This document shows, piece by piece, positions 6,001 to 9,000 of a stretch of DNA of 22,556 nucleotides. The position numbers are program-made. Each line of letters opens with the position of its first letter. Within the stretch, counting starts at the first letter, position 1. Source of the stretch: a virus (taxonomy: Duplodnaviria > Heunggongvirae > Uroviricota > Caudoviricetes); the IMG/VR virus record IMGVR_UViG_2703718816_000011. One strand, 5' to 3'.

Positions 6001-9000
6001 ACGGAACTTGACATGTCGAGACGTGTTACCTCCCTCAGTAGCGCGTCTCTGTTCTTCGTCACCATGTAGATGGTCTCAAACGCAATGTCATACAGCTTGT
6101 TCGTGTATGAGGAGTTCAGCTCTTTCATTATGGGGTACAGCTGCTTGCTAAGGTCCTGGGCTTTTTCCATCCAGAGTTGCATGTAGCAAAGGAGGATGAT
6201 TTCCTCGGCTGTGAATTGTGGCTGAATCTGCGACTGCTGTTCGGTTTGTGTTGTTTTTCCCTGGCTGAAATAGCAGTCTTCCAGTTTTTCGAACACTTCC
6301 CACGCCCGATCGGTTTCGAGCATTTTTGCATGACGGGCTGCGCCGCGTTCTGTCCATAGGATGAGGGAGCGAACGTTACGGGCAATTTTCACAGAGTAGT
6401 TAAAAGCTACTCTGTGCTTGAACTCACGTAAAGTTTCACCTTCAAGTTTGAAGAAGTGTTTTTCCTCAATGAAACGACCTTTGTTTTCGTGGTGATTCTG
6501 GCGAATACGAATAGCTTCTGTGCCGTAAAGGTGCGCCAAAAGTTCGGTAGTGATAACGGGGATCTGCTTGTAAGTAATCGTGGAGAGTGTTTCAACAGAA
6601 ACTTGAGTTGTCATAATGACGCCCTCGAGTGGTTTCTAAACTATCACCACCGTCAGGTTCCTAATCATCGGGTGGCGAGACGTACAGGGTTAGGAACTAC
6701 CGGGAAACCAACCGGCGAGCTTTTCAGCTCCCCTATACGCCCCACCATAATTCAGATGTGCGTGTGCATACGACAATAAAAAACACGCTCGCGGCGTGTC
6801 TCTGTCGCGGTTTCTATCCGGGGTTCCTAATCCCGACGCCAGATTTTGCTGGCGTGCGAAGAATATAATCCCGGATATGTGTTGTCGTCAACATACCTTG
6901 AATGTATATAACAAATTTGTTATGTTTACTCTCATGAACTACATTATCGAATACTACAGTGACGAGGTTGAAGCTGAGATCCTTTCTCTTCCTGAGACCT
7001 TACAAGCCCGGTACATTCGGTACACGGAGAAAATGCGTATTTACGGAGCTAATCTTGGTTCCCCGCATACAGAGGCATTTGGCGACGGTTTGTTTGAAAT
7101 CCGCCTTAAGGGCTCGGAAGGCATAGGGCGTGTTTTTTACTGCACGCTAAAAGGAAAGCGAATCATTATGTTGCATAGCTTTGTAAAGAAAACGCAAAAA
7201 ACTCCACCTGCCGAGCTTAGAAAAGCTGAAACCAGAATGAAGGAGGTTAAGCATGACTGGTAAACGTACCCCACCTACCATGACACACGATGAAATGGTA
7301 GAAAAAATGTTGTCTAACCCCGCAGTAAAAGCAGAATACGACGCCATCGCCGATGAATTCGCACTACTTGATGAAATGCTGGCAGCACGAAAAGAAGCTG
7401 GCTTAACCCAGGCTGAAGTTGCTGAACGTATGGGAACAAAAGCGACTGCGATAACCAGAATGGAAAGCAATCTTGCATCAGGTACAAGCGGCCCATCATT
7501 TGCCACACTGAAAAAATTCGCCCGTGCTACAGGGAAAAAACTCCAGATCCGCTTCGTTTAACTCTCCACTACCGCGCCGTCATTCTGGCGGCGCTTTACC
7601 CCAGAGAAATATCAATCACCGGATTACCACATCCCACTCCGGCTCCTGCCATCTCAAATCCGGTGAATCATTTCTCTCAGGAATAACCATTACGTCCTTT
7701 TCCCTTCGCTCCCTTTCTATCGCCATCACAGCCAATGCTGCAACCATGATGTATTTTTGTTCGTCGGTTCCTGTTTCATAACGACGCATGAGGGTAAACT
7801 CGGGGCGATCAGTAACCTCAATGATTTCGTTAATTTCTTTAATTTCGCGAGGAATATCCATGGGTTTAGTCTCCTTTGATATCACATGCCCGCACTGTTT
7901 AAAAGAGCGAGCTGTTATTGAGGCATTTGCCGAAAAACAAATTGAAAAAACACCTTTTTTTAACGTCGCTTTTGTATGCAGAAGTTGTCATCGAGGAGGT
8001 GTTGCTATTGTTGAAATCCCATCAGACCACTATCACGGTCCCATGGCGGAAAGCCAGAAAAAAGACCTCGATATTCTGATTTCAGGAAATAGCCAGTACC
8101 GTTTCCGCAAGATCTATCCTGTGGTCAAAAAAATTACCGCACCAGAATATACGCCCCCGGTTGCAGACCGTACTTTTGTTGAGGCAAAAGAGGATTTACA
8201 GAGGAGGCGGTACGACACAGTGGTTATTCTTTGTCGCAGAGTCCTCGATATCTCCACGAAAAAACTGCTCGGCGATGAAGCAGGAAAAGAATCGCTGTCG
8301 CAACGTATTCAGATGATTTACAAAAAAGGCCTGATCACTGAACAGATGAAGGAATGGGCTCATATTGTACGAATTGATGCCAATAAAGCAGTTCATACAG
8401 ATGAAGTTTTCACACCAATTGAGGCAAGCCAGATCCTGAGTTTTACCGAAATGTTTTTAGTCTACGCCTTCACTCTGCCTGCAATGGTGGAAGCCAGACG
8501 TGAACAAAAAAGATCAGATTCAGCCTCTATATGAATCACTTTTCTGAACACGTAAGCCCCCGTCATTCACGACGGGGAGAACATCAATCCCTCTGCACTC
8601 CCTCGCCAGAATGCCAGCACACGCTGCATCGTTTCGCTGTTACGGCACTCGCGACAAATTGTGTTGTAGCGTCTGTCGTAGCGCCGTATTTCCCCATCTG
8701 GTAATGCCCGGATAAGGTCTGGATCAACGACAACCGGTTTCTTCAGCTTTGCCCTTGAGAGTTTTTTGCGGGCGTTTTGCCAGTCCTTGCGCGCCTGCTC
8801 AGACGGGAATACTCCGTAACCGGAATTGTAAACATCACCACTGGCGGCCAGCTCCATGCATAAACGACCGACAGACGCATGACTGACACCAATTTCATCC
8901 GATAACTGCCGAATCGTGCCTCGTCCGTTAAGGCGTACGAATTCCACGATCAGCCCCTTAATTTTTTCCCGCTCTTCTGGTGTAAATGCTCTTGTCATAA

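Follow-up and report, generated by a model that had tools for sequence, protein, structure and literature searches.

The window examined in this study, the whole 22,556-nucleotide stretch of IMG/VR virus record IMGVR_UViG_2703718816_000011 (Duplodnaviria; Heunggongvirae; Uroviricota; Caudoviricetes), is part of a Shiga toxin (Stx)-converting lambdoid prophage of Escherichia coli, an assignment that follows from its Shiga toxin genes (1359-2596) lying downstream of the Q antiterminator gene. Two genes of this prophage stand head to head in the interval that separates its replication genes from the nin region: a plus-strand gene for a 224-residue protein with a zinc ribbon and a DUF4145 domain, which is antisense to the early-right operon, and a minus-strand open reading frame (ORF) for an 81-residue protein, which we refer to as the partner (coordinates of the features are given in Table 1). 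The preliminary description of this locus, made from the sequence alone, had drawn attention to the CCATGG palindrome shared by the two starts, to the minus-strand ORF at 7616-7861 and to good Shine-Dalgarno sequences before both start codons, and all of these are present in the sequence. RefSeq annotates both coding sequences identically, with the same starts and the same 2-nt overlap, in a genome that is 100% identical over the stretch. The stretch 7560-8560 has 100% matches in several E. coli chromosomes and was found in 48 of 5426 complete genomes, while the stretch is 98% identical to phage PhiR5_2 and ~89% identical to the Shigella Stx phages 75/02 and POCJ13.

The proposal that the larger protein joins an N-terminal zinc ribbon to a C-terminal DUF4145-like region was borne out for both halves. 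Pfam DUF4145 (PF13643) matched residues 118-197 at 36.9 bits, above its gathering threshold of 23.1 (E 3.9e-9), in keeping with the RefSeq name "DUF4145 domain-containing protein". The cysteines of the two zinc knuckles (C10/C13, CPHC; C40/C43, CRSC) were invariant across 45 homologs of 37-71% identity, as were R171, N175 and H179 of the catalytic motif. In a 128-sequence full-length alignment, composed of the window protein and 127 representatives of 50%-identity clusters, the cysteines were kept in 115-127 sequences, N175 in 124, H179 in 126 and R171 in 119, with six further sequences having lysine at position 171. The assigned start is correct since the homologs begin with MG[ILM] at the same position. 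Mean identity was 69% in the HEPN part, 50% in the zinc ribbon and 27% in the linker, the linker (residues 56-94) being the most variable part of the protein, and the Cys4 zinc ribbon, itself variable among homologs, is presumed to be a sensor domain.

DUF4145 is a HEPN family that occurs in double-stranded DNA viruses and has zinc-ribbon fusions among its architectures (Anantharaman et al. 2013, PMC3710099). An AlphaFold2 model of the 224-residue protein (predicted local distance difference test score, pLDDT, 90.8) has a zinc ribbon with beta strands at residues 4-6, 20-27, 33-40 and 46-52 and a five-helix C-terminal domain in which the four-helix up-down fold of HEPN proteins is present; the catalytic loop was poorly modeled (pLDDT <50 at residues 173-176). 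The best Foldseek matches of the model were to the HEPN toxin structures 7AE6/7AE8, with weak E-values, and the zinc ribbon had weak profile matches to the RPB9 and 1QYP zinc ribbons. The arginine and histidine of the motif are separated by seven residues, rather than by the four to six of the canonical HEPN site, and this had been regarded as a weakness of the HEPN assignment. That reservation can be dropped, because the same spacing is found in a defense RNase whose arginine and histidine are both essential for defense (PMC13017515).

That RNase, RAZR (ring-activated zinc-finger RNase), is the closest characterized relative of the 224-residue protein. Formerly PD-T7-4, it is encoded by E. 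coli UMB1727 (PDB 9Y9C/9Y6U; PMC13017515, PMC9519451) and joins a Cys4 zinc ribbon at its N terminus to a C-terminal DUF4145 HEPN domain, whose R146 and H154 (R-x7-H) are needed for defense (PMC13017515). RAZR is a single-gene abortive infection system that is harmless alone, even when overproduced; it becomes active on assembling into a 24-mer around ring proteins of phages, the portal and the Erf-like Gp77, a ring-forming recombinase being among its triggers, and it cleaves single-stranded RNA non-specifically (PMC13017515). Its zinc-finger domain, on which its authors superposed 1QYP, is its most variable part and sets specificity, and the linker between zinc finger and HEPN domain (AGN, residues 68-70) is short and functionally important; this description rests on two close homologs that are 78% identical to each other (PMC13017515).

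The relationship to RAZR emerged from several searches, all of which located it in the HEPN part. The PADLOC PD-T7-4 model was the top match of the 224-residue protein (E 0.0022, 15.5 bits, residues 85-183) and matched 19 of the 45 homologs, with a best E-value of 2.8e-7. A single-sequence phmmer search against PDB gave no match, the link requiring a family profile, which reached RAZR chain 9y9c_OA at E 0.17 and aligned RIDsNgaVH with RIVGNQAVH. Against a RAZR-family alignment, built after RAZR residues 46-209 had been recovered, hhalign returned a match of 107 columns at 87.6% probability, E 3.5e-6 and 25% identity, covering the HEPN part only, and BLASTP against RAZR returned 24% identity over 139 residues (E 7e-6). 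In the hidden Markov model, hhalign and BLASTP alignments alike, R171 and H179 pair with R146 and H154 of RAZR.

The two proteins are similar in size (224 residues here, 219 in the PDB chain), in having an N-terminal Cys4 zinc ribbon whose first knuckle is CPHC, in the R-I-x-x-N-x-A-V-H site of their DUF4145/HEPN domains with its R-x7-H spacing, in a sensor half that varies more than the HEPN half and in being carried by mobile elements. They differ in that identity is only ~24-25%, and in the HEPN part alone; in the 42 residues from the second knuckle to a conserved I-Y-P, compared to ~12 in RAZR, the linker here being ~30 residues longer; and in a ~40-residue C-terminal tail of RAZR (ITRPKEIEAMF... 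to residue 209) which has no counterpart here. In addition, a small head-to-head partner is unreported for RAZR and was absent in the one RAZR-type context examined. Full-length membership in the RAZR family across both domains was not found by sequence and, on these comparisons, the 224-residue protein is a member of a distant sister clade of RAZR that has the same architecture, and not a member of the RAZR family itself. At 50% identity, this clade comprises at least 205 clusters at E <= 1e-30 and 3347 clusters at E <= 1e-3, its proteins being mostly 205-235 residues long with full-length matches. Current defense-annotation models hardly register it, as the PADLOC score of 15.5 bits and the lack of an NCBIfam model illustrate, and its altered linker and zinc ribbon make it a natural test for the generality of ring-templated activation.

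The RAZR-type context referred to above (locus L173, 3866-4507, plus strand) contains a gene that is 84% identical to RAZR-Ec over the 96-residue HEPN fragment queried, adjoins a gene for a 544-residue integrase, has no divergent partner and has an in-frame stop between its two zinc knuckles. The RAZR-type homologs that we recovered were N-terminally truncated gene calls, and an in-frame stop of this kind would account for the many N-truncated RAZR-family database entries of ~168 residues.

The partner of the 224-residue protein has a conserved core of ~55 residues with three helices and the motif DRPEF.L..RYE....QK..V.AL.G.LIE.DR, followed by a variable tail; an AlphaFold2 model built on a shallow alignment has a three-helix bundle at residues 3-56 and a disordered tail. 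It belongs to PHROG 8371, which is labeled function unknown, and no family, solved structure or fold match supplies a function. Over 40 distinct small ORFs, mean per-site entropy was 0.94, 0.76 and 1.38 bits at codon positions 1, 2 and 3, respectively, and codons of invariant residues (R, P, E, L and G among them) had 0.9-1.9 bits at the third position; therefore, the small ORF encodes a protein under purifying selection. Third-position entropy was reduced in partner codons 2-7. An initial reading of the 81-residue ORF as an orphan of doubtful coding restricted to E. coli, which was based on a word-based homolog search that reached relatives of at least 78% identity only and on the lack of a third-position bias in close comparisons, was overturned by the neighborhoods of distant RNase homologs and by the codon entropy over the 40 sequences.

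The plus-strand ATG of the pair occupies 7860-7862, the minus-strand ATG is the complement of 7861-7859, and each Shine-Dalgarno sequence is embedded in early codons of the opposite gene. The full palindrome is not conserved (it is CCATGA in Shigella phage 75/02), whereas the CATG overlap is. Partner homologs in Yersinia, Proteus and Paraburkholderia, which are 60-73 residues long and have 52%, 49% and 35% identity, respectively, to the 81-residue ORF (E 3e-14 to 4e-4), likewise start 2 nt inside the ATG of the neighboring RNase gene. In a forward census, 109 loci fetched with the RNase profile were grouped into 44 RNase clusters at 90% identity: 27 had a divergent partner at exactly -2 (CATG), one was mixed and 16 lacked the partner. 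Pairing ranged from Escherichia to Paraburkholderia (Enterobacterales and Burkholderiales), and the -2 geometry was found in all partner-bearing loci except one in Enterobacter (L032), which has a spacing of +4. A reverse census used a narrower small-ORF alignment, the alignment of all small ORFs being too variable for a scan, and found the RNase gene at -2 in 47 of the 55 viral loci that it retrieved, all 47 pairs having this spacing. The matches in the other eight loci follow the 18-52/53 pattern typical of small ORFs of the E. coli type; these loci probably belong to the E. coli orf85 lineage. The divergent starts and their overlap thus constitute a conserved two-gene arrangement and extend well beyond a local curiosity.

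Conservation of the arrangement does not in itself require that the two genes work together. The small ORF could be an ordinary gene of the early or nin region, at whose start the RNase gene was inserted once, flush and without coupling. Such physical hitch-hiking, which we consider a secondary but serious possibility, would account for the occurrence of the partner without the RNase gene in the most frequent variant of E. coli (255 index blocks) and in eight of the 55 viral loci, for the 16 of 44 clusters in which the RNase gene lacks the partner, and for RAZR being a single-gene system that is non-toxic alone, and it agrees with the small protein having no assignable function. It is less easily reconciled with the exact 2-nt overlap having been kept while the RNases diverged to 36-38% identity and the partners to 25-35%, with the flanking phage genes being different between the Yersinia, Proteus and Paraburkholderia loci, or with the small ORF never occurring without the RNase gene in the viral sample beyond one E. 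coli lineage.

Partner divergence was correlated with HEPN divergence at a Spearman coefficient of 0.75, compared to 0.34 for zinc-ribbon divergence and 0.33 for linker divergence. In two viral contigs (L058 and L057), the partner is truncated to 39 or 32 codons next to an intact RNase gene, which suggests occasional decay of the partner. A search of the literature on the phrasing of a start-overlapping partner found no description of one, which is weak evidence of absence.

All 12 gene-annotated contexts of RNase homologs are prophage or phage (examples in Table 1). In 61 of 67 distinct loci (35 of 39 with the partner and 26 of 28 without it), the RNase gene ran antisense to the flanking genes, the criterion being that >70% of flanking long-ORF residues were on the opposite strand. 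This layout is the usual signature of cargo genes that are expressed in the lysogen ("morons"), and it agrees with prophages having been identified as the main reservoirs of E. coli defense systems (PMC9519451). The protein had been described as a candidate novel defense effector; the phage contexts and the antisense layout make the defense role plausible, but the novelty could not be upheld, as the kind of effector is already known from PD-T7-4 (2022) and RAZR (Nature 2026). A role in the lytic program instead of defense, either as a DNA- or RNA-binding regulator or as a host-takeover RNase, appears very unlikely. Nucleic acid binding is common among zinc ribbons, the gene is situated among early genes and the protein matches PHROG 1305, labeled "DNA binding protein". 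However, no evidence stands behind that label, the R/N/H residues of the catalytic site are conserved, the closest characterized relative is a defense RNase, and the gene opposes the early or late operon in 61 of 67 distinct loci, as cargo genes expressed in the lysogen usually do.

BstA is a prophage defense family, and the Yersinia prophages with the RNase-partner module also have a BstA_C-domain protein (PF26567) encoded directly after the CI repressor gene (L018-L020, 9490-10410, plus strand); these prophages probably carry two defense genes. The protein of the P2-like Escherichia phage Cartapus represents a third zinc-ribbon-DUF4145 clade, with 26% identity and with lysine at the position of the catalytic arginine (VKDDGNDGAH). 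The portal-adjacent region of P2 is a defense hotspot (PMC9519451).

In the window, the RNase gene follows a HigB/HigA-like toxin-antitoxin pair on the same strand, as described previously: higA ends at 7561, leaving a gap of 298 bp to 7860. The pair was identified by Pfam matches to Gp49 (94.4 bits) and HTH_3 (43.4 bits), its two genes overlap at 7253-7263, and RefSeq and phage annotations concur on a toxin of the RelE/ParE-fold Gp49/HigB type with a helix-turn-helix antitoxin. The suggestion that toxin, antitoxin and zinc-ribbon protein form one three-gene cassette was contradicted by the comparative data, and we now give it hardly any credence. Phage PhiR12_3 shares only window positions 7564-8555 (96% identity); there, too, a toxin-antitoxin pair on the plus strand precedes the module, but that pair is unrelated, homology beginning only at 7564, and Roi is also adjacent. 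Phage phiSTEC1589-Stx1c shares 7571-7857 (97%), its homology breaks at CCATGG and the slot holds a minus-strand gene for a 166-residue protein. The commonest small-ORF variant of E. coli, orf85 (85 residues, 255 index blocks), has no DUF4145 gene, and its gene order is DUF977, the 166-residue gene, orf85, antisense RelE and two helix-turn-helix genes, and Ant; these loci therefore keep the toxin-antitoxin slot without the RNase. Conversely, no toxin-antitoxin pair adjoins the RNase gene in six other genera (Pantoea, Enterobacter, Citrobacter, Yersinia, Proteus and Paraburkholderia). Based on the PhiR12_3, phiSTEC1589-Stx1c and orf85 comparisons, the small ORF has an independently variable slot on either side and, as judged from sequence, the toxin-antitoxin pair and the RNase module vary independently among phages.

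The 166-residue protein (PHROG 25397, no Pfam match) occupies the RNase slot at 2199-2699 (plus strand) of locus L011 and at 4025-4525 (minus strand) of locus L004; in this E. coli/Stx1c variant its gene has the orientation of the phage genes, and ~300 bp of unassigned sequence separate it from the small ORF. In the window, the opposite-strand partner gene and a hairpin (7574-7594, dG -19.1) intervene between higA and the RNase gene. This hairpin travels with the module, being within the stretches shared with both PhiR12_3 and phiSTEC1589-Stx1c; it was not called by a consensus terminator scan and may be a weak terminator, by which the module would be insulated from the toxin-antitoxin operon. 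A second, weak hairpin (8558-8577) delimits the replaceable slot on the right, homology breakpoints being at 8555 and 8608. No special RNA structure was detected around the start overlap (z ~0).

The reading that we favor, and hold to be probable, is that the 224-residue protein is a RAZR-like, sensor-coupled HEPN RNase carried by the prophage as antisense cargo, and that it forms a module with a partner on the lytic strand. Direct support is provided by the domain architecture, the R-x3-N-x3-H site and the predicted HEPN fold. By analogy with RAZR, the RNase would be made in the lysogen in an inactive form, its zinc-ribbon and linker region would recognize a protein of an infecting phage, and the HEPN domains would be brought into an active arrangement, so that RNA would be cleaved, translation stopped and the infection aborted. 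The geometry of the locus suggests how the partner could be connected to this: an mRNA that includes the ribosome-binding site of one gene would be antisense to the start of the other and, upon induction, early-right transcription would have to pass through the entire RNase gene in antisense orientation and only then express the small protein. Given the start geometry and the lambdoid strand layout, the two genes are therefore expected to be expressed in opposite, mutually exclusive states, one lysogenic and the other lytic. As an antidote or a regulator, the small protein may spare the induced prophage from its own abortive infection, which is the weakest step of the scheme.

The need for such a factor can be illustrated by the prophage's own proteins. 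RecT and portal proteins are ring-forming proteins, and a tailed phage must encode a portal. If such rings form here, the phage has a self-triggering problem, with RecT, which it encodes together with a RecE-like exonuclease, as a candidate self-trigger of the RNase. A tentative proposal, which we regard as less likely than not, is that the small protein provides self-immunity in the lytic phase ("anti-RAZR") or belongs to a switch. The RNase would guard the lysogen; upon induction, antiterminated early transcription would cross its gene in antisense, and this transcript would both silence the RNase by way of the shared start region and be translated into an inhibitor of RNase made earlier, so that suicide would not be set off by the portal and RecT of the phage itself. 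If true, it would represent a new, genetically hard-wired means by which a prophage escapes its own abortive infection system.

A toxin-antitoxin-like addiction pair, in which the HEPN protein would be a constitutive toxin and the three-helix protein its antitoxin, stabilizing the prophage instead of sensing phages, would be another way for two such genes to be coupled; we judge it improbable. Antitoxins are normally co-transcribed with their toxins, whereas here the genes are divergent rather than co-directional, with overlapping starts and mutually antisense 5' ends that disfavor co-expression. In addition, many RNase genes occur solo and appear intact, RAZR is harmless when overproduced, and the variable zinc ribbon and linker resemble a sensor under diversifying pressure.

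A number of results weigh against the RAZR-like reading and the role proposed in it for the partner. The likeness to RAZR is weak and confined to the HEPN part (E 0.17 with the PDB profile, 15.5 bits in PADLOC, none with phmmer), 9Y9C was not returned by Foldseek with the model of the 224-residue protein, and the zinc ribbons share little past the CPHC knuckle. Since the linker is ~30 residues longer and the RAZR tail is missing, ring-templated activation may not apply. For the sister clade as a whole, the reading draws on sequence, structural models and analogy. Consensus promoter and terminator scans gave nothing useful for either gene, and the 5' codons of the RNase gene had no extra nucleotide constraint of the sort expected of an embedded promoter. 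The partner is not obligatory, with 16 of the 44 clusters lacking it and one E. coli lineage keeping it without the RNase, RAZR needs no partner, and the correlation of 0.75 between partner and HEPN divergence can be explained by shared ancestry alone and is no proof of contact.

On the minus strand of the window, the genes are, in order, cro-like, cII, O-like, DnaC-like, DUF1627, DUF977, the 81-residue ORF, Ant, a Bro-N protein, NinB, YbcO, RusA, Q, StxA and StxB; the plus strand has genes for a CI-type repressor, N, the RecE-like exonuclease, RecT and YqaJ. The C4 antisense RNA and the isrK RNA upstream of ant are divergent from the HigB-like gene, and the C4/isrK/ant segment looks like a P1-type antisense-controlled antirepressor module.

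Table 1. Features of the window and genomic positions of RNase homologs (coordinates are those of the window except where a locus is named).
Feature	Position	Strand	Remarks
STnc100 RNA	1065-1276	-	Rfam above gathering score, 142.2 bits; just downstream of stxB
Shiga toxin B subunit	1359-1643	-	SLT_beta, 161.3 bits
Shiga toxin A subunit	1640-2596	-	Pfam RIP, 130.8 bits
Q antiterminator	3095-3628	-	stx genes downstream
sRNA-Xcc1	5729-5819	-	Rfam above gathering score, 68.6 bits; between Bro-N gene and ant
ant (ORF6N/P22_AR_C)	5943-6614	-	Gene after C4 antisense RNA and isrK
C4 antisense RNA	6668-6752	-	Rfam, 66 bits; directly upstream of ant
isrK Hfq-binding small RNA	6778-6855	-	Rfam, 69.2 bits; directly upstream of ant
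HigB/HigA-like toxin-antitoxin pair	6937-7561	+	Gp49/HigB toxin, then helix-turn-helix antitoxin
G+C-rich 9-bp hairpin, then UUUA	7574-7594	+	Between higA stop and partner stop; dG -19.1 kcal/mol, z -4.4
Partner gene, 81 residues	7616-7861	-	ORF 7616-7885 with internal ATG at 7861; same strand as phage early genes
Shine-Dalgarno GAGGA of DUF4145 gene	7849-7853	+	6 nt before ATG; inside partner codons 3-5
Start-codon overlap CATG	7859-7862	both	2-nt head-to-head; CCATGG at 7858-7863
Zinc-ribbon-DUF4145 (HEPN) gene, RAZR-like, 224 residues	7860-8534	+	ATG at 7860, within long ORF 7788-8534
Cys4 zinc ribbon, residues 1-55	7860-8024	+	C10/C13 at 7887-7898, C40/C43 at 7977-7988
Shine-Dalgarno AAGGAG of partner	7871-7876	-	9 nt before ATG; inside DUF4145-gene codons 4-6
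Linker/insert, residues 56-94	8025-8141	+	Helix 61-68, strand 81-86
DUF4145/HEPN helical domain, residues 95-224	8142-8531	+	Pfam, alignments
Catalytic motif R171-I-D-A-N175-K-A-V-H179 (R-x7-H)	8370-8396	+	Conserved in alignment
7-bp hairpin	8558-8577		Between convergent DUF4145 and DUF977 genes; overlaps DUF977 stop; z -2.3, -1.9 (weak)
RecE-like exonuclease	16801-18873	+	Encoded by prophage
RecT	19172-19957	+	Encoded by prophage
RNase homolog, Pantoea			Between Rz and HNH/terminase genes
RNase homolog, Enterobacter			Adjoins int and xis
RNase homolog, Citrobacter and Klebsiella phage 2b			Between lysis genes and small terminase subunit
RNase homolog, Yersinia and Proteus			Between replication genes and NinB
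RNase homolog, Paraburkholderia			Among early genes
RNase relative, Escherichia phage Cartapus (P2-like)	L016, 162-860	+	Between cos site and portal gene

The module is ~1 kb long and its clade is present in lambdoid prophages that include Stx phages of E. coli and Shigella, in which the RNase module may affect superinfection and the spread of Stx phages. Among previously described systems, the survey of DUF4145 proteins (PMC3710099) linked them to restriction-modification, TerD and McrBC and did not describe a head-to-head module in prophages. HepS, a single-protein HEPN abortive infection system of the Gifsy-1 prophage (PDB 9OIK), has no zinc ribbon and senses the tail-tip protein J (PMC13043305), and its structural likeness to the 224-residue protein is at most at the generic HEPN level. 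HepS established that prophages do face self-killing upon induction, to which Gifsy-1 has another solution (PMC13043305), and the partner described here bears on the question that this raises of how a prophage with an abortive infection system avoids killing itself when induced.

The validated E. coli defense protein DS-38 (HEP2, WP_001313577.1), from the DefensePredictor study, has a HEPN domain with a zinc finger and was compared by its authors with PD-T7-4, from which its zinc-finger part differs. We considered whether DS-38 is the same protein as the one studied here and rejected this, as its gene has 1101 bp (~366 residues) and its accession is different; neither WP_032144013 nor WP_001624507 is present in the tables of the DefensePredictor paper. 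In having opposed transcription units with overlapping 5' regions, the module is similar to the developmental switches of coliphages 186 and P2. In those phages, face-to-face promoters (pR/pL in 186, Pe/Pc in P2) separate the lysogenic from the lytic program by mutual interference. There, it is the immunity repressor that is controlled in this way, whereas in the module described here the overlap consists of the start codons and ribosome-binding sites of the two genes.

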